From Escherichia coli (GTDB lineage Bacteria > Pseudomonadota > Gammaproteobacteria > Enterobacterales > Enterobacteriaceae): a DNA stretch of 64,000 nucleotides. The position numbers were made by a program, and so were the translations under genes. The notes below the pieces were generated by a model that had not been told where the DNA came from, made no database searches, and saw only the letters and a program-made list of their open reading frames with translations. How positions within the stretch are numbered: position 1 is the first letter of the stretch; each line of letters starts with the position of its first letter. Shown piece after piece: positions 7,536-64,000 of this stretch. The stretch is taken from NCBI RefSeq assembly GCF_036507355.1, contig NZ_AP027877.1. One strand, 5' to 3'.

Positions 7536-8948
7536 ATGTCACTCAGTCGGCGTCAGTTCATTCAGGCATCGGGGATTGCACTTTGTGCAGGCGCTGTTCC
7601 CCTGAAGGCCAGCGCAGCCGGGCAACAGCAACCGCTACCCGTTCCGCCGCTGCTTGAATCTCGCCGTGGGCAACCGCTGTTTATGACTGTACAACGTGCG
7701 CACTGGTCATTTACGCCAGGGACACGCGCGTCGGTCTGGGGAATCAATGGTCGTTACCTGGGGCCGACTATCCGCGTCTGGAAGGGCGACGATGTTAAGC
7801 TTATTTACAGCAACCGCCTGACAGAAAATGTCTCAATGACGGTGGCCGGGCTACAGGTACCAGGTCCGCTGATGGGCGGTCCGGCACGGATGATGTCGCC
7901 AAACGCTGACTGGGCACCCGTACTGCCTATTCGCCAGAACGCAGCTACTCTGTGGTATCACGCCAATACTCCCAACCGCACGGCTCAGCAGGTCTATAAC
8001 GGCCTTGCCGGAATGTGGCTGGTGGAAGATGAAGTCAGCAAGTCGCTGCCTATCCCCAACCATTATGGTGTGGATGATTTTCCGGTCATTATCCAGGATA
8101 AACGGCTGGATAACTTTGGTACGCCAGAATACAACGAACCGGGAAGCGGCGGCTTTGTTGGTGATACGCTGCTGGTTAACGGTGTACAAAGCCCGTACGT
8201 TGAAGTCTCGCGTGGCTGGGTGCGCTTGCGACTGCTGAACGCGTCGAACTCTCGTCGCTATCAACTACAGATGAGCGATGGTCGCCCGTTACATGTGATT
8301 TCTGGCGATCAGGGATTCCTGCCTGCTCCTGTATCGGTGAAGCAACTTTCGTTGGCACCGGGCGAGCGCCGCGAGATTCTGGTGGATATGAGCAACGGTG
8401 ATGAAGTGTCGATCACCTGTGGCGAAGCGGCGAGCATTGTTGATCGTATTCGTGGCTTCTTTGAGCCATCCAGCATTCTGGTTTCTACCCTGGTGCTAAC
8501 GCTGCGCCCAACCGGCCTTCTGCCGCTGGTCACAGACAGTCTTCCGATGCGCCTGCTGCCAACTGAAATCATGGCCGGTTCGCCGATTCGCAGTCGCGAT
8601 ATCAGTCTGGGTGATGACCCGGGTATTAATGGACAACTGTGGGACGTCAACCGTATTGATGTCACCGCGCAGCAAGGAACGTGGGAACGCTGGACGGTAC
8701 GCGCGGACGAGCCGCAAGCGTTCCATATTGAAGGCGTGATGTTCCAGATCCGTAACGTGAATGGTGCGATGCCGTTCCCGGAAGACAGAGGCTGGAAAGA
8801 TACCGTTTGGGTTGACGGACAAGTGGAGCTGCTTGTTTATTTCGGTCAGCCTTCCTGGGCGCACTTCCCGTTCTACTTCAACAGTCAGACGCTGGAAATG
8901 GCGGACCGTGGCTCGATTGGGCAACTGTTAGTCAATCCGGTACCGTAA
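7536..8948 (+). CDS. ftsP: Cell division protein FtsP (SufI), Tat-exported multicopper-oxidase-like
   Basis: 470-aa ORF starting MSLSRRQFIQASGIALCAGA (twin-arginine signal); recognised as FtsP/SufI. Confidence 0.95.
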   Translation: MSLSRRQFIQASGIALCAGAVPLKASAAGQQQPLPVPPLLESRRGQPLFMTVQRAHWSFTPGTRASVWGINGRYLGPTIRVWKGDDVKLIYSNRLTENVSMTVAGLQVPGPLMGGPARMMSPNADWAPVLPIRQNAATLWYHANTPNRTAQQVYNGLAGMWLVEDEVSKSLPIPNHYGVDDFPVIIQDKRLDNFGTPEYNEPGSGGFVGDTLLVNGVQSPYVEVSRGWVRLRLLNASNSRRYQLQMSDGRPLHVISGDQGFLPAPVSVKQLSLAPGERREILVDMSNGDEVSITCGEAASIVDRIRGFFEPSSILVSTLVLTLRPTGLLPLVTDSLPMRLLPTEIMAGSPIRSRDISLGDDPGINGQLWDVNRIDVTAQQGTWERWTVRADEPQAFHIEGVMFQIRNVNGAMPFPEDRGWKDTVWVDGQVELLVYFGQPSWAHFPFYFNSQTLEMADRGSIGQLLVNPVP

Positions 8949-8952
8949 TCTT

Positions 8953-8990
8953 CATACTCGCCCGAGGAGGGCGAGTATGGAATACTTTTC
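8953..8990 (+). terminator. Hairpin downstream of ftsP (putative intrinsic terminator)
   Basis: Inverted repeat CATACTCGCCC-GAGGAG-GGCGAGTATG followed by a moderately T-rich tract. Confidence 0.45.
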
Positions 8991-9058
8991 GATTTCTCTT
9001 TCGTTCCGGCTTATAATCCCCGGCCTTTGATTATTTTTTTATCATTTCTGGAAGCAAA

Positions 9059-11278
9059 ATGAGCTCTATCTCCCTGATCCAACCGGATCGCGACCTGTTC
9101 TCCTGGCCGCAGTACTGGGCCGCCTGTTTTGGACCGGCACCGTTTTTGCCGATGTCTCGTGAAGAGATGGATCAACTTGGCTGGGATAGCTGCGACATCA
9201 TTTTGGTTACTGGCGACGCGTATGTCGATCACCCAAGCTTCGGGATGGCGATTTGCGGTCGTATGCTGGAAGCGCAGGGCTTTCGCGTTGGGATCATCGC
9301 TCAGCCAGACTGGAGCAGCAAAGACGACTTTATGCGTCTGGGTAAACCGAATCTGTTTTTCGGTGTTACTGCTGGCAACATGGATTCGATGATCAACCGT
9401 TATACCGCCGATCGCCGTTTACGTCATGACGATGCCTACACGCCGGATAACGTCGCGGGTAAGCGCCCGGATCGCGCCACACTGGTTTATACCCAGCGTT
9501 GTAAAGAGGCGTGGAAAGATGTACCGGTGATCCTCGGTGGTATTGAGGCTAGTCTGCGCCGTACCGCGCATTATGATTACTGGTCCGATACCGTGCGCCG
9601 TTCCGTGCTGGTGGATTCGAAAGCCGACATGCTGATGTTTGGTAACGGTGAGCGTCCGCTGGTGGAGGTGGCGCACCGTCTGGCGATGGGCGAGCCAATT
9701 AGCGAAATCCGCGATGTGCGTAATACTGCGATTATCGTAAAAGAGGCGTTGCCAGGCTGGAGCGGTGTGGATTCTACTCGTCTTGATACCCCTGGGAAAA
9801 TCGACCCGATCCCGCATCCGTATGGCGAAGATTTGCCGTGTGCGGATAACAAACCGTTGGCCCCGAAAAAGCAGGAAGCTAAAGCTGTAACTGTGCAGCC
9901 GCCGCGCCCGAAACCGTGGGAAAAAACCTACGTATTGCTGCCTTCTTTCGAGAAAGTGAAGGGCGATAAAGTCCTGTACGCTCATGCTTCGCGCATTCTG
10001 CACCACGAAACCAACCCAGGCTGCGCCCGCGCATTGATGCAAAAACACGGTGACCGCTATGTGTGGATCAACCCGCCTGCTATCCCGCTTTCTACCGAAG
10101 AGATGGACTGCGTTTTTGCGCTGCCGTACAAGCGCGTGCCACATCCGGCCTATGGCAATGCCCGTATTCCGGCTTACGAAATGATCCGTTTTTCGGTCAA
10201 CATTATGCGCGGCTGCTTTGGCGGCTGCTCTTTCTGTTCTATCACCGAGCACGAAGGGCGCATTATTCAGAGCCGTTCCGAAGATTCGATCATTAATGAG
10301 ATCGAAGCGATCCGCGACACCGTTCCAGGTTTTACGGGCGTAATTTCCGATCTCGGTGGGCCAACTGCCAACATGTATATGTTGCGCTGCAAATCGCCAC
10401 GCGCTGAACAAACCTGCCGTCGTTTGTCCTGCGTTTACCCGGATATTTGTCCGCATATGGACACTAACCACGAACCGACGATCAACCTCTATCGCCGCGC
10501 TCGCGATCTGAAAGGCATTAAAAAGATTCTGATTGCCTCAGGCGTACGTTATGACATCGCCGTGGAAGATCCGCGCTATATCAAAGAACTGGCGACCCAT
10601 CACGTCGGCGGTTATCTGAAGATTGCTCCGGAACATACCGAAGAAGGGCCGTTGTCGAAGATGATGAAGCCGGGCATGGGCAGTTATGACCGCTTTAAAG
10701 AGCTGTTCGATACCTACTCGAAACAGGCAGGTAAAGAGCAGTATCTGATCCCGTATTTCATCTCTGCGCACCCCGGTACGCGTGATGAAGATATGGTGAA
10801 TTTGGCGCTGTGGCTGAAAAAGCATCGTTTCCGTCTCGACCAGGTACAGAACTTCTACCCATCGCCACTGGCTAACTCGACCACCATGTATTACACCGGG
10901 AAAAACCCGCTGGCGAAGATTGGTTATAAGAGTGAAGACGTCTTCGTACCGAAGGGCGACAAACAGCGTCGTTTGCATAAAGCGTTGTTGCGTTACCACG
11001 ATCCGGCAAACTGGCCGTTAATCCGTCAGGCGCTGGAAGCAATGGGTAAAAAGCATCTGATTGGCAGCCGTCGCGATTGCTTAGTGCCTGCGCCAACCAT
11101 TGAAGAGATGCGTGAGGCTCGTCGTCAGAACCGCAATACTCGTCCAGCGTTGACGAAACATACGCCGATGGCGACCCAGCGTCAGACGCCTGCTACGGCA
11201 AAAAAAGCGTCGTCTACGCAATCTCGTCCGGTGAATGCTGGGGCGAAGAAACGCCCTAAAGCGGCGGTTGGACGTTAA
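9059..11278 (+). CDS. ygiQ: Radical SAM protein YgiQ (UPF0313)
   Basis: 739-aa [23 protein letters not shown]...; contains CFGGCSFC radical-SAM cysteine cluster; lysine/alanine-rich C-terminal tail. Confidence 0.95.
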
Positions 11279-11320
11279 AAAAAATCCCCGGCAACTGACA
11301 TACTGCCGGGGATTTTTTTA
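11279..11320. terminator. Bidirectional rho-independent terminator between ygiQ and yqhH
   Basis: A-run, perfect hairpin ATCCCCGGCA...TGCCGGGGAT, then T-run (AAAAAAAATCCCCGGCAACTGACATACTGCCGGGGATTTTTTT). Confidence 0.65.
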
Positions 11321-11578
11321 TCATTCTGCGTACATACGCAAGCAGCGCAGGCAATCAAAATAGTCCTGTGCATCAAGACGCGTATTGGCTCTGTTAGCTT
11401 CGGATTTGGCAGCATAGATTTGTGGGCGTAGTGCTTTCATATCCTGCTCAAGCCGGGCGATTTTGGCATTTAATGTTTGTACATTGCTCGCCAGTTGATT
11501 GACCTTTTGCTCATTGACGCAGCCACTGAGCAAGCAGGTTGCCAGAACAACAGCTCCCACGGTGAAAATCGTTTTCAT
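11321..11578 (-). CDS. yqhH: Lipoprotein YqhH (Lpp-like)
   Basis: 85-aa [23 protein letters not shown] with lipobox LSGC; coiled-coil region; recognised as YqhH. Confidence 0.85.
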
Positions 11579-53591: not shown

Positions 53592-55763
53592 ATGAGTCAA
53601 ACCATAACCCAGGGCCGTTTACGCATTGACGCCAATTTTAAACGTTTTGTGGATGAAGAAGTTTTGCCGGGAACAGGGCTGGACGCTGCGGCGTTCTGGC
53701 GCAATTTTGATGAGATCGTTCACGATCTGGCGCCAGAAAATCGTCAATTACTGGCAGAACGCGATCGCATTCAGGCGGCGCTGGACGATTGGCATCGCAG
53801 CAATCCGGGTCCGGTAAAAGACAAAGCGGCCTATAAATCTTTCCTGCGTGAACTGGGCTACCTGGTGCCGCAACCGGAGCGCGTGACGGTGGAAACCACG
53901 GGCATTGACAGCGAAATCACCAGTCAGGCGGGGCCACAGCTGGTGGTTCCGGCAATGAACGCCCGCTACGCGCTGAACGCGGCGAACGCTCGCTGGGGCT
54001 CACTGTACGATGCGTTATACGGCAGCGACATCATTCCGCAGGAAGGGGCGATGGTCAGCGGCTACGATCCGCAGCGCGGTGAGCAGGTTATCGCCTGGGT
54101 TCGGCGTTTCCTCGATGAATCACTACCGCTGGAAAACGGCAGCTATCAGGATGTGGTGGCGTTTAAGGTAGTTGATAAACAATTACGCATCCAGTTGAAA
54201 AATGGTAAAGAAACCACGTTACGTACCCCGGCGCAGTTTGTCGGTTACCGTGGCAATGCCGCTGCGCCGTCCTGCATTTTGCTGAAAAATAACGGCCTGC
54301 ATATTGAGCTGCAAATCGATGCCAACGGGCGGATTGGCAAAGACGATCCGGCGCACATCAACGATGTTATCGTCGAAGCGGCCATCAGTACCATTCTCGA
54401 CTGCGAAGATTCGGTCGCGGCGGTTGATGCGGAAGATAAAATCCTGCTGTACCGCAATCTGCTGGGCCTGATGCAGGGGACTCTGCAAGAGAAAATGGAG
54501 AAAAACGGTCGACAAATCGTGCGTAAACTGAATGACGATCGTCATTACACCGCCGCCGATGGCTCTGAAATTTCTCTGCACGGACGCTCGCTGCTGTTTA
54601 TCCGCAACGTGGGTCATTTGATGACCATTCCTGTGATTTGGGACAGCGAAGGCAATGAAATCCCGGAAGGCATTCTTGATGGCGTCATGACTGGCGCGAT
54701 TGCCCTCTATGATTTAAAAGTGCAGAAAAACTCGCGCACTGGCAGCGTCTATATTGTGAAACCGAAAATGCACGGTCCGCAGGAAGTGGCGTTCGCCAAC
54801 AAACTGTTTACCCGCATTGAGACAATGCTCGGTATGGCACCGAATACCCTGAAAATGGGCATTATGGATGAAGAACGTCGGACCTCGCTGAACTTGCGTA
54901 GCTGTATCGCTCAGGCGCGCAACCGCGTGGCGTTCATCAATACAGGTTTCCTCGACCGTACCGGCGATGAAATGCATTCGGTGATGGAAGCTGGCCCGAT
55001 GCTGCGTAAAAAACAGATGAAATCGACGCCGTGGATCAAAGCCTACGAGCGCAATAACGTGCTTTCCGGTCTGTTCTGTGGGCTGCGCGGTAAAGCGCAA
55101 ATCGGCAAAGGCATGTGGGCAATGCCGGATCTGATGGCGGACATGTACAGCCAGAAGGGCGATCAGTTGCGTGCCGGGGCGAACACGGCCTGGGTTCCGT
55201 CACCAACCGCCGCCACGCTGCATGCGCTGCATTACCACCAAACCAACGTACAGAGCGTGCAAGCTAACATTGCTCAGACCGAGTTCAATGCTGAATTTGA
55301 ACCGCTGCTGGACGATCTGCTGACCATTCCGGTTGCTGAAAACGCTAACTGGTCGGCGCAAGAGATCCAACAAGAGCTGGATAACAACGTGCAGGGGATT
55401 CTGGGTTACGTAGTGCGTTGGGTAGAGCAGGGGATTGGTTGTTCAAAAGTGCCGGACATTCACAACGTGGCGCTGATGGAAGACCGCGCAACGCTGCGCA
55501 TCTCCAGCCAGCATATCGCCAACTGGTTACGCCACGGCATTCTGACCAAAGAACAGGTGCAGGCATCGCTGGAGAACATGGCGAAAGTGGTTGATCAGCA
55601 AAACGCTGGCGATCCGGCTTATCGTCCAATGGTGGGGAATTTCGCTAACTCGTGTGCCTTTAAAGCTGCCAGTGATTTAATCTTCCTCGGTGTGAAACAG
55701 CCAAACGGCTATACCGAACCGTTATTACACGCCTGGCGTTTACGCGAAAAAGAAAGTCATTAA
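53592..55763 (+). CDS. glcB: Malate synthase G
   Basis: 723-aa [34 protein letters not shown]...; recognised as GlcB. Confidence 0.97.
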
Positions 55764-56118: not shown

Positions 56119-57801
56119 ATGGTTACCTGGACCCAAATGTATATGCCGATGGGAGGACTGGGGCTATCCGCTCTGGTTGCCCTGATCCCAATAATATTCT
56201 TCTTCGTTGCACTTGCGGTATTACGTCTGAAAGGACATGTCGCCGGAGCGATAACCCTTATATTATCTATCCTGATTGCGATATTCGCCTTTAAAATGCC
56301 GATTGATATGGCATTTGCTGCTGCGGGCTATGGCTTTATTTATGGTTTATGGCCAATTGCGTGGATTATTGTCGCGGCGGTGTTCCTGTATAAATTAACC
56401 GTTGCCAGCGGACAGTTCGATATTATCCGCAGCTCGGTTATCTCCATCACCGACGATCAGCGTTTGCAGGTGTTACTGATTGGTTTCTCCTTTGGTGCGT
56501 TGCTGGAAGGAGCGGCTGGCTTTGGTGCGCCGGTGGCGATTACCGGTGCGCTGCTGGTGGGCCTGGGCTTCAAACCGTTATACGCGGCGGGGCTGTGTCT
56601 GATTGCCAATACTGCGCCGGTGGCGTTTGGTGCGTTGGGCGTGCCGATTCTGGTCGCCGGTCAGGTAACGGGAATCGATCCGTTCCACATTGGCGCAATG
56701 GCGGGACGTCAGTTACCGTTCCTGTCGGTTCTTGTGCCGTTCTGGCTGGTAGCAATGATGGACGGCTGGAAAGGGGTGAAAGAGACGTGGCCAGCGGCGC
56801 TGGTTGCTGGGGGAAGCTTCGCTGTCACTCAGTTCTTTACCTCTAATTATATTGGTCCGGAACTGCCGGATATTACTTCGGCGCTGGTGAGTATCGTCTC
56901 ACTCGCTTTATTCCTTAAAGTCTGGCGGCCGAAAAATACCGAAACGGCAATCAGCATGGGACAATCCGCAGGTGCGATGGTGGTAAATAAGCCATCTTCT
57001 GGCGGTCCCGTACCTTCAGAATATAGTCTGGGGCAAATCATTCGAGCGTGGTCACCGTTTTTAATCTTAACGGTGCTGGTCACCATCTGGACCATGAAGC
57101 CGTTTAAAGCGTTATTTGCTCCGGGCGGCGTGTTTTATTCACTGGTGATTAATTTCCAGATCCCTCATTTGCATCAACAAGTGTTGAAAGCGGCACCCAT
57201 TGTCGCCCAACCAACGCCAATGGATGCGGTGTTTAAATTCGACCCCCTCTCGGCTGGCGGCACCGCTATTTTTATTGCGGCGATTATCTCTATCTTCATC
57301 CTCGGCGTGGGCATCAAGAAAGGGATTGGCGTCTTTGCCGAAACGCTAATTAGTCTGAAGTGGCCGATATTGTCGATTGGCATGGTGCTGGCGTTCGCCT
57401 TCGTCACCAACTATTCCGGCATGTCCACCACGCTGGCGCTGGTACTGGCAGGTACAGGCGTGATGTTCCCGTTCTTCTCACCGTTCCTCGGTTGGCTGGG
57501 GGTATTCCTTACCGGCTCGGACACTTCTTCAAACGCCCTGTTTGGTTCACTGCAATCGACCACGGCGCAGCAAATCAACGTCTCTGACACTCTGCTGGTG
57601 GCAGCAAATACCAGCGGCGGCGTAACTGGCAAGATGATCTCCCCGCAATCTATCGCCGTGGCCTGCGCCGCGACGGGCATGGTGGGCCGAGAATCTGAAC
57701 TGTTCCGCTACACCGTGAAGCACAGTCTGATTTTTGCCAGCGTTATCGGCATTATCACGCTGCTGCAGGCGTATGTGTTTACTGGAATGTTAGTCTCGTA
57801 A
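56119..57801 (+). CDS. glcA: Glycolate/lactate permease (LctP family)
   Basis: 560-aa polytopic [37 protein letters not shown]...; recognised as GlcA. Confidence 0.95.
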
Positions 57802-57810
57802 GTCAATAAT

Positions 57811-57850
57811 GCCGGATGAAGGTAAATATCATCCGGCTTTCCATTTGTTT
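57811..57850 (+). terminator. Rho-independent terminator after glcA
   Basis: Hairpin GCCGGATGA-AGGTAAATA-TCATCCGGC followed by TTTCCATTTGTTTG. Confidence 0.6.
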
Positions 57851-58170
57851 GTCGTTTATCTCGCCAGGGAACCGTTTTTACGATTGGCTTCTTAATACAT
57901 AGTCTCCGTTTTACAATGCAAATTGTTTAATATTTATACGTCTGAGCTTCTGTGCTGGTTATAAAGCACCCACTTTCATGAGATCAATTTTAGTATGTTA
58001 TTACATTGCTACGTCTGTTCTTTTCATGACGAATGGCGTTTTTTCTCTTGTTTGTATTTTTCACGAGAGCAATGAGCAGATCAAAATTCCCAAAAACATA
58101 AGATTATTCGCAATGAATCGCCACGGGTTTAACAGACACCTCAGAGTCATTTAAGATGGCTTAAAGAGAG

Positions 58171-58455
58171 GTGCCCATGAGCGGTAAGCGTTATCCCGAA
58201 GAGTTTAAAATTGAAGCAGTCAAACAGGTTGTTGATCGCGGTTATTCTGTTGCCAGCGTTGCAACACGTCTCGATATCACCACCCACAGCCTTTACGCCT
58301 GGATAAAGAAGTACGGTCCGGATTCTTCCGCTAATAAAGAACAGTCAGATGCTCAGGCCGAGATCCGCCGTCTCCAGAAAGAGCTGAAGCGGGTTACCGA
58401 CGAACGGGACATATTAAAAAAAGCCGCGGCGTACTTCGCAAAGCTGTCCGACTGA
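58171..58455 (+). CDS. IS3-family transposase OrfA (HTH domain)
   Basis: 94-aa ORF MPMSGKRYPEEFKIEAVKQVVDRGYSVASVATRLDITTHSLYAWIKKYG... with leucine-zipper-like C-terminus typical of IS3 OrfA. Confidence 0.9.
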   Translation: MPMSGKRYPEEFKIEAVKQVVDRGYSVASVATRLDITTHSLYAWIKKYGPDSSANKEQSDAQAEIRRLQKELKRVTDERDILKKAAAYFAKLSD

Positions 58456-59324
58456 GGTACGCCTTTATCCGTGACAACACCTGTTGCTGGCCTGTTCGCC
58501 TGCTCTGTCGGGTGCTGGATGTTCATCCCAGTGGTTTTTACGCCTGGCTTCAGCAGCCGCATTCACAACGCCATCAGGCAGACCTGAGGCTGACAGGGCA
58601 GATTAAACAGTTCTGGCTGGAATCGGGATGCGTCTATGGTTATCGCAAAATCCATCTGGATCTGCGGGACAGCGGGCAACAGTGCGGAGTGAACAGAGTC
58701 TGGCGACTGATGAAACGTGTCGGGATAAAGGCTCAGGTCGGATACCGGAGCCCGCGGGCACGTAAAGGCGAGGCCAGTATCGTGTCGCCCAACAGGCTCC
58801 AGCGACAGTTCAATCCGGATGCTCCGGATAAGCGTTGGGTAACGGACATAACCTACATCAGGACCCACGAAGGCTGGCTGTATCTTGCCGTGGTTGTTGA
58901 TCTGTTCTCACGCAAAATTATCGGCTGGTCCATGCAATCCCGGATGACAAAGGACATTGTCCTGAACGCACTGCTGATGGCTGTATGGCGCCGTAATCCC
59001 CAAAAACAGGTGCTGGTTCATTCGGATCAGGGCAGTCAGTACACAAGCCATGAGTGGCAGTCGTTCCTGAAATCACACGGCCTGGAGGGCAGCATGAGCC
59101 GTCGCGGTAACTGCCATGATAATGCGGTTGCAGAAAGCTTTTTCCAGTTGTTGAAACGCGAACGGATAAAGAAAAAGATCTACGGAACGCGGGAAGAAGC
59201 CCGCAGCGATATTTTTGATTACATCGAAATGTTTTATAACAGTAAGCGTCGGCATGGTTCCAGCGATCAGATGTCACCGACAGAATATGAAAACCAGTAT
59301 TATCAACGGCTCGGAAGTGTCTAG
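58416..59324 (+). CDS. IS3-family transposase OrfB (DDE integrase core), expressed as OrfAB fusion by -1 frameshift
   Basis: -1 frame is open from the slippery site; contains WVTDITYIRTHEGWLYLAVVVDLFSRKIIGWSM, HSDQGSQYTS and CHDNAVAESFF DDE-core motifs; the first in-frame ATG is at 58512. Confidence 0.85.
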   Translation, partial: KKSRGVLRKAVRLRYAFIRDNTCCWPVRLLCRVLDVHPSGFYAWLQQPHSQRHQADLRLTGQIKQFWLESGCVYGYRKIHLDLRDSGQQCGVNRVWRLMKRVGIKAQVGYRSPRARKGEASIVSPNRLQRQFNPDAPDKRWVTDITYIRTHEGWLYLAVVVDLFSRKIIGWSMQSRMTKDIVLNALLMAVWRRNPQKQVLVHSDQGSQYTSHEWQSFLKSHGLEGSMSRRGNCHDNAVAESFFQLLKRERIKKKIYGTREEARSDIFDYIEMFYNSKRRHGSSDQMSPTEYENQYYQRLGSV

Positions 59325-59339
59325 ATTACCCGTGGCGAT

Positions 59340-59555
59340 TCAGTCATCAGTAATTACGCTGTCATCCAGTTTCGCATAACAGATACTGTCATCACCGGCT
59401 TCAATATAGCTGGAAAAATTCTCACTGATGAAGCGGTAGAAAAGGGCACCGAGTACATACTGTTTAAAATCCCATCCATCTACGGAGCCTCTGACATCAT
59501 TGGCAATGGCCCAGATTTGGCGGTGTAGCTCTGCACGCTGCTGAAGGCTTGTCAT
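59340..59555 (-). pseudogene. hsdM: Truncated type I restriction-modification methyltransferase (hsdM) N-terminal remnant
   Basis: 71-codon ORF MTSLQQRAELHRQIWAIANDVRGSVDGWDFKQYVLGALFYRFISENFSSYIEAGDDSI... matches the N-terminus of type IC HsdM (EcoR124-like) as I recall it, then runs directly into the IS right end. Confidence 0.7.
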
Positions 59556-59758
59556 TTTGTATCCTGTTGTATGATTCTTAAGTACTGTTATTGGCCCGAT
59601 TTTATCGTAATTTCATATTGATGACAGGCTTTGTATGTCATACGTTGCACTGAGAGTTCGTTTGCCCGGTTGTGTAGGCAGCGCTCTTTCAGCCAGGTCA
59701 GTAGAAACGTTGCGCTGACGATAAATACTGAAGCCCCAATACCATCGGGGCTGAACGT

Positions 59759-61636
59759 TCAGTCGGTGAGAATTTCTTCATCCGTATCCATTGTGGATGG
59801 TGATGAATCTATTTTTGTTGTAAGAAATACCCGATTCAGTAGTCTTTGCTTCAGGGCGTTTCTTCGCTCATTGTAGAACTCCGGGAAGCGACTGAACTCA
59901 ATATTTTCATCTGAAACTAACAGCATTGATGGCGAATAGTTGTTTGATGGCTGAGATAGCCATTGTTTCAGGGAAGTATCCTGTTTACTTATATTCTGAG
60001 AGTGATTCAGTAAATGAAGATTAGGTATGGTGTCCCAGTGCTCCGGATTTTCATAAAAGCTGAGGTTCTCTGGTGTATTCGCAACATAATCTAATTTTTC
60101 AAGATATTTCTTTGAAAAATGATTTCTTGGGTGAAGGTGATCAATATGAAACACCTCGGTCGGATTCATTTCAGGGAACAGAAGATGCAATAGTGCGCGG
60201 CAACGACCTTCGCCATATCTGATATTGAGAAGGCTTTCGATGTATTCGTCGTCAAATCTGAGGTCTTTATTCGAGCCTTTATATCTGTCAATAATCTTCT
60301 CAAGAGGAAAGTGAATATCTGAAAGACTATTTTTCATTACATCTCTGATACTCGTGAGTAGCGCATCTGCCTGGCTTCCAAAGATCCCTTTCAGAAGTAC
60401 CATGTAAAACCACTGGCTAATTACTGAGCGTTCATTGTGGTTTTTATTCAGGAGATTAATCGTTGTATATAATGGATGTCCACTGGTTTGCTTTTTGTAA
60501 AGCCAGTAGACCACAGGAATGACTGCATTTTTAGATATCAAAGACTGTGGATTGATGCCGAATCGCCTGATAAGAATAAAGGTCTCCTTGATACAGGATT
60601 TTATTTCAGACCATTGTTGTTGTATCTTACCGACCTCCTCTGAAGTGAAGTTTTTTACTTTGAACCGGACGTCAGAGTCAATAAGCATCAGGCTGGTTTT
60701 TAAGAACCAGTCTCTTTCAATATAAAAACCCATTTCATTATTCTGATAAATGTTTTTTGTCAGTTCATCCAGTTCTTTTCTGAAATCACCCTGCCAGTGC
60801 GCTACCGCTATTGACATCAGTAAGTCTGAAAACTCAAGTTTTGTCCCCCCGCTGTTCGTGCGGATGAAAACATCCAGCACATGATCAATGTCCTGACTGC
60901 TCTCATTGAAGTAGTGGATAAGATTCTCAGTTCTTATCTTGGTATAAAGTTTAAGCAGAGTTTTTCTGGAAAATTCACTGGAAATGAGATCTCTTTTTTC
61001 AAGTTCTGGTACGACAACGTTAAATAAAATATCATCAGGCGAATCATGTTGCTCGTATTTGAATATTTCGTGCAGGCAGAACCAGTGATGTTTGTTATCG
61101 GCAAGTGAATCAGTATATTGCTTCTCGGTCAGGAACCTGAAGTTATACTTCATCATGAGCTCATCGTCTGACTTAAGTGGCGCGGTTAAATCGACGTAAA
61201 GCTTTCTGGGTGGCAGGATGCGATCATCCTGTGCCGAAGGCCACCACATCCGGGGCTGTTTATACGCATACGTTCCACACAATCCAATATATAATGATGT
61301 GAGACGCTGCTGACCATCAATCACGGCCTTGAAATCATGAAACCCAGCATTTGTTGCTACGCAGGGGTTTTCTTCATTAAATCGCTGACAGTATTCTTTC
61401 AGGAACTCATAGAATTTGTAATCATTTTTAATACTGGCACTACGGATATCCCACATCATGAAAGAGTTTATCGGGTAGTCTCGCATGATGGAATCAAACA
61501 GCAAACATATCTGACTGCTGCTCCAGACGAACTTCCTCTGAATTGCAGGCAGAAGATAGTGGCGTAAATTAATTGAATCTATCGCTTGTTTTATCGTTAT
61601 TGCTTTTTCATACTGGCCAGCCATCATAAACCTCAT
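59759..61636 (-). CDS. DUF262/DUF1524 (GmrSD-like) putative type IV restriction / defence nuclease
   Basis: 625-aa ORF; N-terminal DUF262 signatures (LPAIQRKFVW, LFDSIMRDYPINSF, VIDGQQRLTSLYIGL); C-terminal His-Me/HNH-like DUF1524 region (HIDHLHPRNHF ... NLHLLNHSQN). Confidence 0.8.
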   Translation of the reverse strand: MRFMMAGQYEKAITIKQAIDSINLRHYLLPAIQRKFVWSSSQICLLFDSIMRDYPINSFMMWDIRSASIKNDYKFYEFLKEYCQRFNEENPCVATNAGFHDFKAVIDGQQRLTSLYIGLCGTYAYKQPRMWWPSAQDDRILPPRKLYVDLTAPLKSDDELMMKYNFRFLTEKQYTDSLADNKHHWFCLHEIFKYEQHDSPDDILFNVVVPELEKRDLISSEFSRKTLLKLYTKIRTENLIHYFNESSQDIDHVLDVFIRTNSGGTKLEFSDLLMSIAVAHWQGDFRKELDELTKNIYQNNEMGFYIERDWFLKTSLMLIDSDVRFKVKNFTSEEVGKIQQQWSEIKSCIKETFILIRRFGINPQSLISKNAVIPVVYWLYKKQTSGHPLYTTINLLNKNHNERSVISQWFYMVLLKGIFGSQADALLTSIRDVMKNSLSDIHFPLEKIIDRYKGSNKDLRFDDEYIESLLNIRYGEGRCRALLHLLFPEMNPTEVFHIDHLHPRNHFSKKYLEKLDYVANTPENLSFYENPEHWDTIPNLHLLNHSQNISKQDTSLKQWLSQPSNNYSPSMLLVSDENIEFSRFPEFYNERRNALKQRLLNRVFLTTKIDSSPSTMDTDEEILTD

Positions 61637-61697
61637 ATGTTATATTAGCTGGCCTATTTTAATTTATTGCGTGTCGGTAGTACAGTCTTTGCACAAA

Positions 61698-62027
61698 CTA
61701 ATTTATGCAATGGAAAAGCTGACGGCTCGGTTTGTGTTTTTCATTCGGGTAGACTCGCATTGCGGATGCACAAAGTGATGAAACCTGTCTTGCTATATTT
61801 TTACCGAAGTTAACAAGTAGGCCGTGCTTTATTTTTTCACCCTCTGCCCTGATGCTGATGACAAAGCTGAACTGATATACGATTACCTCAATGAGGTCAT
61901 TGCCAAATGTTATGATGGCGGCGTTGTTTATTTCATATTCATAATCCCTCAGGTCAGTGTTAAGTCTTGCTGTTGCATTTACAAGTGCGTATTCTTTATC
62001 GATAATCATAACTTTCTCACTTATCAT
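61698..62027 (-). CDS. Hypothetical small protein (109 aa)
   Basis: ORF with ATG start between the WYL regulator and the DUF262/DUF1524 gene on the same strand; no recognisable motif. Confidence 0.45.
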   Translation of the reverse strand: MISEKVMIIDKEYALVNATARLNTDLRDYEYEINNAAIITFGNDLIEVIVYQFSFVISIRAEGEKIKHGLLVNFGKNIARQVSSLCASAMRVYPNEKHKPSRQLFHCIN

Positions 62028-62067
62028 GTTAATGTGATTTAATCATCACTAATAATATGTTGTGATT

Positions 62068-62781
62068 TTAATTACGATTATTCGTCTGTTTACTCCCGTA
62101 ATGCATTATCTGATGAATAATGTTCATGTGGGGTAAGGCTTCCATAAAGTCAGACTGTTCAATCAGCGAAATGAGTGTGTTATCGATCTCAAACGTTGTA
62201 TCCGGTAATACCTCAACCAGCCTGATTCGGGACAGGGAAATAACGAACACGCCCGATGACGTACATCCGGCAAGAAACCACTCCGCATGGCTGCAAAGCA
62301 GACGATAGGGATGAACGGTATGGCTGACGTTTTCGTCGGTTCTGATACGCACCTTGGTCTGGTTAAGTATGGCGAGCGTTAGTCTGCTGAAATCACCGAA
62401 CAGCGTGGGTTTCTGGCGCGGCTCCGGGAGCATAATCCGGTAGGGTGAAGGGTGCTCCCCGTCAAGCAGAAGGCTCAGCAGTTTGGCATCCATCGCGGGT
62501 AACAGACGGTCAAGATGCAGCAGTCTCGCCAGTATCTTCATATCTCGTTCCGTGCGGCGACGAAAGTAATGTGAGGCAAGCTGATACACGCCGTTGCTCT
62601 GTTCAATATCAAGGTAGGTCAGACGGACGTTGAAATCCCGCCGCAGCGTTCGCGTTGTCACTCCAAATTCTTCTGCCAGCGTCCCGATATGCAGCTTTTC
62701 ACCCTGAAACAAACGGCTCAGGATGATGGAAAGGCGGGTTGCCAGTCTGTCATGTTCGTTTTCTTGTGTTATCAGCGTCAT
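62068..62781 (-). CDS. WYL-domain transcriptional regulator (HTH + WYL), BrxR/CapW-like
   Basis: 237-aa ORF; N-terminal HTH (IGTLAEEFGVTTRTLRRDF); central W[YF]L-type region (HPYRLLCSHAEWFLAGCTSSGVFVISLSRIRLVEVL). Confidence 0.7.
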   Translation of the reverse strand: MTLITQENEHDRLATRLSIILSRLFQGEKLHIGTLAEEFGVTTRTLRRDFNVRLTYLDIEQSNGVYQLASHYFRRRTERDMKILARLLHLDRLLPAMDAKLLSLLLDGEHPSPYRIMLPEPRQKPTLFGDFSRLTLAILNQTKVRIRTDENVSHTVHPYRLLCSHAEWFLAGCTSSGVFVISLSRIRLVEVLPDTTFEIDNTLISLIEQSDFMEALPHMNIIHQIMHYGSKQTNNRN

Positions 62782-62883
62782 ACATCATTTCCGAATTTAG
62801 CCGGGAAATGATGCCAGCAGTAGCGGACAGGATTTGTCCACCCTCTGAAGTTTTTTAAAGTCTGAATACCTTAAATGTAAGTG

Positions 62884-63633
62884 CTAAACGTCAGTATTCT
62901 CAGGTGAATAAAGATGCTTCTGGCGCATGTAGGCAATAAAAATGCAGGATGGTAGCGTCACCCGGTATGCGGGACCGGCTAAATCAATCAGCAGCCAGAG
63001 AGAACTGAGCACCCAGCCCACAGGACCGGCAAAAGCGCCCATGGTACGCGTCAGCATGGCATTTCCTGCAACGGTCAGCCCTCTGCCTAACAGGGCTTTC
63101 GCCACACCATTTGTGACAACAAGTGCCATCTGATAGGCCGCAAACCCGGATGTTTTTATCCCCGCCTGGATTGCCATGGTCAGCAACTCCGGCGTGGGGT
63201 TGCTGTAGCCTGTCTGCAATTCTTCCGCCACGGTCTTTAACTGATCGGGCGTCATCTTCTCAAGGCTTTTCTCCAGGATCTTCATCAGCAGATTCATTTC
63301 AATGGTTTCAACACTGGATTTGTTGTTGTAGTTCACCTTCATTTTATCGCAGGCATCGGTGAGAATTTCCCGGTACGGCACCCCTTTACCCCAGCGGAGC
63401 AGCGTGGCAAAGCTGTTCGCCCCAAACGTCTGAACCTCGGCGGCAATGGCATCCCAGTAGCGCGGGTGGTTGGGCTTGTGTTTTTTATACTGAGGATCAT
63501 AGGTCAGCGTTTCCGTGATGCGTGCCAGTCCGTCTTTCGGATCGCAGATAAGCACAGAAACCAGTAAATCCAGATCGTCACGATGGCAGTGGCGCAGAAA
63601 CTCAAGGTCGGGGTCGTGTCGGTAGGTAGCCAT
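62884..63633 (-). CDS. Hypothetical protein, possibly YaaW-like (UPF0174/DUF3944)
   Basis: 249-aa ORF; acidic N-terminal DDLDLLVSVL region and glycine-rich hydrophobic C-terminus (GAFAGPVGWVLSSLWLLIDLAGPAY); family assignment from memory, low certainty. Confidence 0.4.
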   Translation of the reverse strand: MATYRHDPDLEFLRHCHRDDLDLLVSVLICDPKDGLARITETLTYDPQYKKHKPNHPRYWDAIAAEVQTFGANSFATLLRWGKGVPYREILTDACDKMKVNYNNKSSVETIEMNLLMKILEKSLEKMTPDQLKTVAEELQTGYSNPTPELLTMAIQAGIKTSGFAAYQMALVVTNGVAKALLGRGLTVAGNAMLTRTMGAFAGPVGWVLSSLWLLIDLAGPAYRVTLPSCIFIAYMRQKHLYSPENTDV

Positions 63634-63707
63634 ATTTCACCTCATTGCAGATATTGGACCTGACAGTTTAAGGAAGCCACCGGACAGGGCTTGTCCGCCT
63701 GAAAAAC

Positions 63708-63745
63708 AAAAAAGTAAAAAAAACCTGCCGAAAGCAGGTTTCTGT
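63708..63745 (-). terminator. Rho-independent terminator for the partial minus-strand gene at the window end
   Basis: Hairpin AACCTGC-CGAAA-GCAGGTT; on the minus strand it is followed by a T-rich run (plus-strand AAAAAACAAAAAAGTAAAAAAA). Confidence 0.55.
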
Positions 63746-63776
63746 TCACCGGATGGAGGTATAACGCGTCGGGATT

Positions 63777-64000
63777 ACTTTCCGCGCCATTCCTTTTCCA
63801 CTTTATCCGCAAAAGCATCGCACTGCCGGGCATATTCCGGGTTATAGAGCAGCTCCGACTGCGAAAGCTGCATGGCGGTCATGCTGCCGTTACGGGCATT
63901 TGATTCGAGCCAGGTTCTGCCATAGGTTTTGTTCATCACCTGAAGTACCCGGTTGAATACCGGTCCGTTGAAGCGGGCATTGAGATTAACGCCTTTTACC
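63777..64000 (-). CDS. Partial CDS (C-terminal 74 codons), unknown product; gene continues beyond window end
   Basis: Open minus-strand frame ending ...VLQVMNKTYGRTWLESNARNGSMTAMQLSQSELLYNPEYARQCDAFADKVEKEWRGK then TAA at 63777-63779, followed by the terminator. Confidence 0.55.

Follow-up and report, generated by a model that had tools for sequence, protein, structure and literature searches.

An intact BrxU-like nuclease beside an IS-truncated type I restriction-modification operon in an eroded Escherichia coli defence island

We analysed a stretch of 64,000 nucleotides (nt) of the Escherichia coli chromosome (RefSeq assembly GCF_036507355.1, contig NZ_AP027877.1; hereafter the window), in which a nuclease gene, a WYL regulator gene, a YaaW-like gene, a small open reading frame (ORF) and a truncated hsdM gene of a type I restriction-modification (RM) system lie side by side. 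The genes glcB (positions 53592-55763) and glcA (56119-57801) are on the plus strand and are followed by an insertion sequence (IS) of the IS3 family and then by five minus-strand ORFs (Table 1). An earlier note on this DNA, made from the sequence without database searches, had described four co-directional minus-strand genes plus a YaaW-like ORF as an eroded defence island, and all five ORFs were recovered where it had placed them, on the minus strand. It had also called the region more AT-rich than the core genes. This is true of the nuclease gene and the small ORF (40.1% GC) and of the hsdM remnant (46.5%) but not of the WYL gene (50.3%) or the YaaW-like gene (53.1%), which resemble the window mean of 51.3%. 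Annotation with the defence-system tool PADLOC, which the note had suggested, gave matches to HEC-05, JukA and WYL models. A search of positions 57500-64000 for RNA families returned nothing beyond a chance match to a snoRNA (E 0.07). We compared the locus with related loci, among them those of E. coli RCAD0514 (L001), GPEC1189 (L002) and MB31 (L017), Hafnia alvei (L003), E. coli PigCaeca_1 (L018), plasmid pEC22-NDM-5 (L019) and a Klebsiella pneumoniae plasmid (L027), and a collection of 5426 complete E. coli genomes was searched. At 99.8% identity, the GPEC1189 locus is the window's nearest relative.

Table 1. Features of the locus, in window positions.
Feature	Position	Strand	Details
IS3-family insertion sequence	58114..59342	+	orfA 58171-58455, orfB 58512-59324; terminal inverted repeats TGAATCGCCACGGGT
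hsdM 5' remnant	59343..59555	-	codons 1-71 of 518; ORF 59340-59555 including stop
hsdM leader/promoter region	59556..59758	-	203-bp gap past nuclease gene; one sigma-70-like site 59627-59599
Intact BrxU-like GmrSD-family type IV (modification-dependent) restriction endonuclease, cargo	59759..61636	-	625 amino acids (aa); HEC-05, 7P9K, GmrSD_N
Orphan small core protein, last core gene	61698..62027	-	103 aa from Met7 at 62009; 109 aa from 62027
14-nt non-coding motif AACATATTATTAGT	62048..62061	-	between WYL stop and small ORF start; contains TATTAT
Helix-turn-helix (HTH)-WYL transcription regulator, island core	62068..62781	-	237 aa; Pfam HTH_DeoR 6e-6, WYL 5e-4 (weak)
Inverted repeat CATCATTTCC-N11-GGAAATGATG	62783..62813	-	overlaps WYL ribosome-binding site
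Palindrome GGACA-N5-TGTCC, candidate operator	62825..62839	.	44-58 bp upstream of WYL start codon
YaaW/DUF3944 protein (JukA-like), island core	62884..63633	-	249 aa; PADLOC JukA PDLC04113 6e-72
Second GGACA-N5-TGTCC palindrome	63682..63696	.	49-63 bp upstream of YaaW start codon
Intrinsic-terminator-like hairpin	63719..63743	-	11-bp stem plus T-run; between upstream core genes and YaaW-WYL unit
3' part of core gene hyp128 (128 aa)	63777..64000	-	placed by coordinate offset from L001; island runs past window end

The nuclease matches characterised members of the GmrSD/BrxU class over its full length, consistent with the class to which the earlier note had assigned it. The best match was to the PADLOC HEC-05 model PDLC04151 (5.4e-231, residues 4-604, 767 bits), with a lower score for the sub-model PDLC04150 (435 bits); HEC-05 is BrxU. 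The protein also matched the solved BrxU structure PDB 7P9K (5e-99, residues 9-600) and the Pfam GmrSD_N (DUF262) model (1.9e-33), and was 35% identical to the pEFER-type BrxU over 600 columns (8e-110). When aligned with BrxU it retains the motifs QR(K/E)FVW (here QRKFVW), FDS, DGQQR and F-I-R-x-N-S-G-G-T (here FIRTNSGG), i.e. FxxxN. Toward the C-terminus, HIDHLHP aligns with the BrxU sequence HVDHIYP (H-x-D-H-x-x-P, a His-Me motif), and the downstream N residues are kept. The note had described a DUF262-DUF1524 fusion; the DUF262 part is matched by GmrSD_N, and the second part is recognisable as a D-H...N...N motif aligned with BrxU but not by the Pfam DUF1524 model. The protein is 100% identical to its counterpart in GPEC1189, indicating that the nuclease is intact. 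BrxU is described as a nucleoside triphosphate (NTP)-dependent, single-protein enzyme that degrades DNA containing 5-methylcytosine (5mC), 5-hydroxymethylcytosine (5hmC) or glucosyl-5hmC and spares unmodified DNA. By homology, the BrxU-like nuclease would likewise act alone as an NTP-dependent endonuclease, its N-terminal DUF262 NTPase/sensor domain would license the C-terminal His-Me nuclease on DNA carrying 5mC, 5hmC or glucosyl-5hmC, and T-even-type phages would be the ones restricted.

The type I RM operon beyond the nuclease gene has been destroyed. Over all of its 71 residues the hsdM stump shows 100% identity with the start of the intact 518-aa HsdM in L001 and L002, and it matches positions 1-66 of the 515-position TIGR00497 model at 2e-28, with 99 bits against a cutoff of 243. 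With 71 of 518 residues remaining, there is no intact HsdM with its N6-methyltransferase domain, and the stop codon of the remnant (59340-59342) is the terminal TGA of the IS. Beyond the stump, at the place where intact relatives have hsdS and hsdR, neither gene is present; the IS and glcA are there instead. Many E. coli genomes contain copies of this IS at 99.8-99.9% identity, under the annotation 'IS3 family transposase'. The element is flanked by caa on the left and gtc on the right, so that a target-site duplication is absent, which fits an IS-mediated deletion or recombination better than a simple insertion. The glcA-IS-hsdM junction was found in none of the 5426 genomes. Left of the IS, as far as the glcA terminator region, lie 267 bp (57847-58113) that represent a natural variant of the glcA-downstream region and are present in only 41 of these genomes, indicating that the chromosomal side of the deletion falls in that variant region. 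In O145 and other E. coli the variant sequence continues into a winged HTH (wHTH) gene.

We conclude that an IS3-family element cut hsdM after codon 71, that the distal part was lost, that the island was fused to the glcA-downstream region, and that the type I system is dead. The BrxU-like nuclease survived this IS-mediated loss of its neighbour. Both the loss of the RM system through an IS and the label "eroded defence island", as the earlier note had put them, are borne out by an hsdM stump that ends at the IS with no hsdS or hsdR downstream, next to an intact BrxU-class nuclease. IS erosion at the junction of the island's core and cargo is recurrent: in E. coli MB31 the small ORF is broken by an IS next to an intact nuclease gene; on plasmid pEC22-NDM-5 the nuclease gene is intact, with an hsdM stump on one side and, on the other, small-ORF and WYL genes disrupted by IS elements; and in PigCaeca_1, at the same glcA-side location, IS1 cuts the nuclease gene. 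Across these three loci, insertions and deletions involving IS1, IS3 and IS1203 hit the nuclease, the small ORF, the WYL gene or hsdM independently.

Comparison with intact relatives places the window's genes in a larger island. In intact E. coli islands the order is DUF2787 - LRAT - 79-aa HTH - hyp128 - YaaW/DUF3944 - WYL - small ORF - DUF262 nuclease - hsdM - hsdS - hsdR, and the island also encodes a DUF927 protein and two or three tyrosine recombinases; in strain RCAD0514 it is beside tRNA-Phe. The segment 59300-64000 is covered to at least 80% in 66 of the 5426 complete E. coli genomes, and the WYL gene plus small ORF to at least 80% in 106. Context look-ups for homologues of the small ORF showed the same core in Hafnia and Limnobaculum, and a scan of one genome per species showed it in Enterobacter, Pseudocitrobacter, Morganella, Silvania (where the small ORF is missing), Buttiauxella and Mixta; it is also present in Edwardsiella and at locus L030. 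In all, the YaaW, WYL and small-ORF genes recur jointly as core in at least 11 other genera. What follows the core varies. Enterobacter and Pseudocitrobacter have a BrxU-like gene plus hsdMSR, as in E. coli, and a short contig of Mixta shows the BrxU-like gene only. Hafnia, Limnobaculum and Morganella have unrelated genes, most of them on the opposite strand and of unknown function, for which PADLOC gave a single candidate match (PDC-M26A). Edwardsiella has YaaW-WYL-small joined directly to hsdM-hsdS-hsdR, with the nuclease absent, and one further genome has the YaaW-WYL-small trio followed by a DUF6708 gene. DNA homology to Hafnia, Limnobaculum and Morganella stops at 61701-61705, by the stop codon of the small ORF (61698-61700). 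The varied cargo, the homology break and the Edwardsiella and Hafnia loci together indicate that the trio belongs to the island core, that the type I RM operon is old cargo, and that the BrxU-like gene forms a unit of its own, sitting between the core and hsdM. As read from sequence, the comparison shows a core order of DUF2787 - LRAT - small HTH - hyp128, a terminator, and then YaaW/JukA-like - HTH-WYL - 103-aa orphan; the cargo is the BrxU-like type IV enzyme followed by the type I RM operon hsdM-hsdS-hsdR.

The nuclease gene also travels apart from this core. It is covered to at least 80% in 114 of the 5426 E. coli genomes, and relatives on plasmids account for 399 matching records, of which 264 are from Klebsiella and 263 are at least 90% identical; the Klebsiella protein is ~95% identical, as is a nuclease encoded by Klebsiella phage vB_KpnS_p4727 (PQ492289.1). 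On the single plasmid that we examined, the ~105-kb K. pneumoniae plasmid L027 (NZ_CP069855.1), positions 7790-10228 correspond only to window positions 61846-59409. This fragment comprises 74 codons from the 3' end of the small ORF, the intact BrxU-like gene and 49 hsdM codons, and the WYL gene is absent. It adjoins the phage-like nucleotide-metabolism genes nrdAB and thyA. A minimal nuclease cassette appears to have spread on Klebsiella phage-plasmids. Conversely, in Hafnia L003 the nuclease is absent and a 77-bp stretch of the hsdM leader (59615-59539) is kept beside a 20-aa hsdM relic. There, at 11287-11421, the 77-bp leader and 20 codons come after the island core, where the cargo is unrelated and on the opposite strand; we read the relic as a trace left by a former type I RM cargo that has been replaced. 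Edwardsiella without the nuclease, the Hafnia relic without the nuclease, and the Klebsiella fragment with the nuclease and stumps only argue for the autonomy of the nuclease. Since the nuclease is retained in L027, MB31 and pEC22-NDM-5, neither the WYL gene nor an intact small ORF is needed for its maintenance.

The island resembles pipolins. Published work describes enterobacterial pipolins as bimodular elements in which a core made up of IntSXT, IntP2, DUF2787, WYL and orphan genes is combined with defence cargo that can be exchanged, type I RM systems among it, and its authors briefly mention pipolin-like islands that lack piPolB. The layout here is the same: an IntSXT-type integrase, DUF2787, WYL and orphans, and then variable defence cargo. 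In a true pipolin, which has an 864-aa piPolB-like gene together with an excisionase gene and two integrase genes, a remote small-ORF homologue comes after DUF2787-LRAT. Proteins of this element are 46-58% identical to the island's integrase, hyp117, hyp143, DUF2787 and LRAT proteins, and 30% identical to the small-ORF product. The piPolB hallmark was not found in the intact relatives, which have DUF927 at the corresponding position, in a part of the island that falls outside the window.

The WYL regulator has the architecture of a wHTH domain followed by a WYL domain, as judged from Pfam and an AlphaFold2 (AF2) model. It matched the PADLOC WYL model at 4e-15 and is 82-88% identical in Hafnia and Limnobaculum and 59% identical in Edwardsiella ictaluri. 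The AF2 model has a mean confidence (pLDDT) of 72 and a pTM of 0.42, and its best Foldseek matches were CapW, BrxR, PafBC and DriD (E 5e-8 to 1e-5 over ~200-250 columns), with low global TM scores because the relative orientation of the domains is poorly predicted. The earlier note had linked this WYL-HTH regulator to the BrxR/CapW type, and the HTH-WYL fold agrees with that; by sequence, however, it does not belong to the BrxR family, which is defined by BLASTP E < 1e-5 to BrxR. Pairwise BLASTP gave a best E of 0.048, and we rejected the protein as a BrxR homologue by sequence; phmmer and profile searches against solved WYL regulators in the PDB gave no match. Past the WYL barrel the model shows two helices only and there is no Pfam WCX match, making the presence of a full WCX domain in the modelled protein doubtful, although a 32%-identical, 300-aa relative does carry PF25583. 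The HTH-WYL-WCX gene for this relative is in a metagenomic element, where it is divergent from a small-ORF homologue (43% identical). The core also contains, outside the window, a 79-aa stand-alone HTH gene ('DeoR'; L001 19896-20135) resembling the N-terminal HTH of the WYL regulator; the product matches positions 4-42 of the PADLOC WYL model at 1.8e-6 and is 33-43% identical to WYL orthologues.

The intergenic regions upstream of the WYL and YaaW genes each contain the palindrome GGACA-N5-TGTCC. A scan of the 64-kb window that allowed one mismatch gave two matches only, both exact, and neither precedes the small ORF, the nuclease gene or hsdM. Wherever a related locus includes these intergenic regions, both palindromes are found in the same positions. 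The box nearer to WYL extends to perfect 8-bp arms (GGTGGACA / TGTCCACC) in Hafnia, Limnobaculum, Edwardsiella and L030, and one arm position covaries, being T-A in four sequences, C-G in four and T-G in one. BrxR is reported to bind an 11-bp inverted repeat with a 5-bp spacer (the R-box). The WYL protein would bind the two boxes as a dimer, controlling the JukA-like gene and itself, and a nucleic-acid ligand in the WYL domain would probably release or switch the regulator, as in CapW and DriD. With boxes preceding only the YaaW and WYL genes, the predicted WYL regulon is likely to be the JukA-like gene plus WYL itself; WYL control would reach the nuclease, if at all, only via read-through.

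Other signals surround these boxes. The terminator-like hairpin at the head of the YaaW-WYL unit is kept in six genera, with the YaaW box just downstream. The inverted repeat at the WYL ribosome-binding site and the palindrome fold jointly, as RNA hairpins, with z = -4.0; we rejected the former hairpin as a universal feature, as it is not kept in L030. The motif AACATATTATTAGT is identical in nine loci, including Edwardsiella and L030, where the genes on either side have only 50-66% aa identity. The TATTAT within it may mark a promoter -10 region, perhaps for the small ORF, or the motif may be a protein-binding site. A sigma-70 scan gave fewer sites than shuffled sequence and no convincing nuclease promoter.

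The YaaW-like protein matches the PADLOC JukA models at 6e-72 and 8e-70 and phrog_13238 at 1e-74, and its orthologues carry PF13099 and PF03981, the combination of DUF3944 and Cbp3-like domain of JukA-type proteins. It is 92-96% identical in Hafnia and Limnobaculum. In GPEC1189 the gene is frameshifted (L002 15545-16290; two high-scoring segment pairs, annotated as 214 aa), and it is intact in the window. We looked for JukB among the neighbours, and the WYL, small-ORF and hyp128 products gave no JukB match.

The small ORF, which the earlier note had listed as a 109-aa unknown, is a real and conserved gene with 76 homologues in Enterobacterales, although the conserved start at Met7 makes the product 103 aa. 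Its C-terminal motif IKHGLLVNFGKNIARQ...QLFRC is strongly conserved. An AF2 model (pLDDT 79) shows a ferredoxin-like fold whose best fold matches are IS200/IS605 TnpA-type proteins. Searches for a known defence or toxin component gave no match in PADLOC, NCBIfam, Pfam or the PDB and a non-significant match in PHROGs (E 0.093). A zinc site was considered from the residues His68, Cys86, His98 and Cys107, which are invariant in close homologues, and was rejected, as remote homologues are without them; a 105-aa ORF beside brxR on a pEFER-type plasmid was likewise rejected as a homologue. Similar domains (24-29% identity, AFDB50) appear fused to a 506-aa metallo-beta-lactamase-domain protein in Lysinibacillus and to uncharacterised proteins of 437 aa and, in Clostridium, 518 aa, and stand alone in Cupriavidus and Pseudomonas. 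Judging by these models, the domain may be more widely distributed.

Taken together, we consider it probable that in this region the conserved core of a piPolB-less, pipolin-like Enterobacterales island meets its exchangeable defence cargo, that the nuclease is autonomous cargo and that the WYL regulon is the JukA-like gene plus WYL itself. Several points weigh against parts of this reading. The integrases, the DUF927 gene and the tRNA are outside the window, so that the type of island is assigned through near-identical relatives, and the best of these, GPEC1189, occupies a different chromosomal site. The 79-aa HTH paralogue could bind the boxes in place of the WYL protein, or the boxes could act as RNA hairpins, given the joint fold of the leader. 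A terminator-like site was not found between the small ORF and the nuclease gene, such that transcription may read into the cargo and indirect control of the nuclease by WYL is possible. For the nuclease itself, the missing Pfam DUF1524 match means that the C-terminal assignment rests on the BrxU alignment, the BrxU motif RLFDS reads LLFDS, and at 35% identity the substrate range may differ from that of BrxU.

The earlier note had instead suggested that the WYL regulator and the small ORF may form a regulated module with the nuclease. Spelled out, this would be a single defence operon that WYL represses, with the small protein as a partner or modulator of the nuclease. All three genes point the same way, are spaced 40-70 bp apart and lack a terminator-like site between the small ORF and the nuclease gene; they adjoin in the 66 E. 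coli genomes that carry the segment and in Enterobacter, Pseudocitrobacter and Mixta, and a fragment of the small ORF accompanies the nuclease on Klebsiella plasmids. However, in Hafnia, Limnobaculum, Morganella, Edwardsiella and L030 the WYL and small-ORF genes are accompanied by unrelated cargo or by hsdMSR alone, and the break in homology coincides with the small-ORF stop codon. The nuclease, for its part, is kept without WYL and with 74 small-ORF codons on L027, and with an IS-disrupted small ORF in MB31 and pEC22-NDM-5; an operator box is absent before the small ORF and the nuclease gene, and BrxU and HEC-05 work as single proteins. A three-gene operon of this kind is very unlikely, and the comparison favours an island core with varied cargo over a dedicated module.

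Two further explanations concern the core genes, and each has an outside chance of being correct. The YaaW(JukA-like)-WYL-small trio could be a Juk-type defence system fixed in the core, with JukA as the sensor of nucleus-forming jumbo phages early in infection and with WYL, the small protein or both as effector or regulator. The strong match to the JukA hidden Markov model, the conservation of the trio down to 59% WYL identity and the same palindrome before both the YaaW and WYL genes are consistent with this; so is the Juk paper, in which WYL and RM genes are the commonest defence-linked neighbours of jukA and some JukA proteins, including one from Escherichia, protect without JukB. Conversely, a JukB-like protein is absent next door, the presence of a small-ORF homologue in a true pipolin without YaaW or WYL indicates that this gene is not tied to JukA, and 92-96% identity of YaaW across genera is the behaviour of an element backbone. 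Alternatively, and with a similarly modest prospect, WYL, the small ORF and YaaW could serve the life cycle of the island, for example by sensing phage infection or DNA damage to trigger excision and replication, rather than defence of the host. In favour of this, the core genes adjoin integrases, a DUF927 replication-type gene, DUF2787 and LRAT; the WYL and orphan genes of pipolin cores are said to maintain the element; the WYL regulators DriD and PafBC respond to single-stranded DNA or DNA damage; and the small protein resembles TnpA-type proteins in fold. We regard as rather improbable a reading in which the JukA-like protein, the short HTH-WYL protein and the 103-aa orphan would make up a sensor module that is fixed in pipolin-like islands and co-regulated through two identical operators, coupling phage detection to the downstream cargo or to mobilisation of the island. 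If true, this module would be a generic 'controller' at the core/cargo junction and not the regulator of one defence system.

Every component of the locus belongs to a described class (BrxU/HEC-05, type I RM, HTH-WYL, JukA and pipolin-type islands), and the locus mainly illustrates known principles. It is a clean natural case of the pruning of defence islands by IS elements, in which a single-gene BrxU-like nuclease repeatedly survives. Under the reading that we favour, a core/cargo junction in a piPolB-less, pipolin-like island, the comparison places the core/cargo boundary to within a few bases and predicts a testable operator and regulon for the WYL regulator. It also serves as a caution that adjacency in one genome is poor evidence for a functional module.

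With respect to known systems, the WYL regulator is like BrxR, CapW and DriD in combining a wHTH with an Sm-like WYL domain (by model match), in its defence-island location and in the palindrome with a 5-bp spacer before its own gene, as in the BrxR R-box. It differs from BrxR in that sequence similarity is undetectable and that it is ~60 residues shorter (237 versus 295 aa), with no Pfam WCX match. It differs from all three in being part of a mobile-element core rather than of one defence system, and in the second box before a jukA-like gene. The YaaW/DUF3944 protein matches JukA models strongly and has the WYL and RM neighbours typical of jukA loci, whereas JukA/JukB systems have a JukB partner that is absent here.

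The nuclease is a full-length, collinear homologue of BrxU and, like it, a single polypeptide beside a methylation-based system that targets unmodified DNA; here it is upstream of a type I RM operon and not embedded in BREX, and another HEC-05 sub-model fits best. Type I RM loci often have GmrSD-like genes embedded or adjoining, as with TgvAB (Vibrio cholerae VPI-2) and RloF (Campylobacter jejuni), in which hsdMSR and the gene for a modification-dependent DUF262 nuclease share location and orientation, such that modified and unmodified DNA are both covered. TgvAB consists of two proteins encoded between hsd genes, whereas here one protein is encoded between the island core and hsdM, and its RM partner has been destroyed. 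Relative to pipolins, the island has DUF927 in place of piPolB and an extra block of small HTH-hyp128-YaaW-WYL between LRAT and the small ORF; it shares with them a homologous IntSXT-type integrase, two orphans, DUF2787, LRAT and the small ORF, a WYL gene in the core, and exchangeable cargo.

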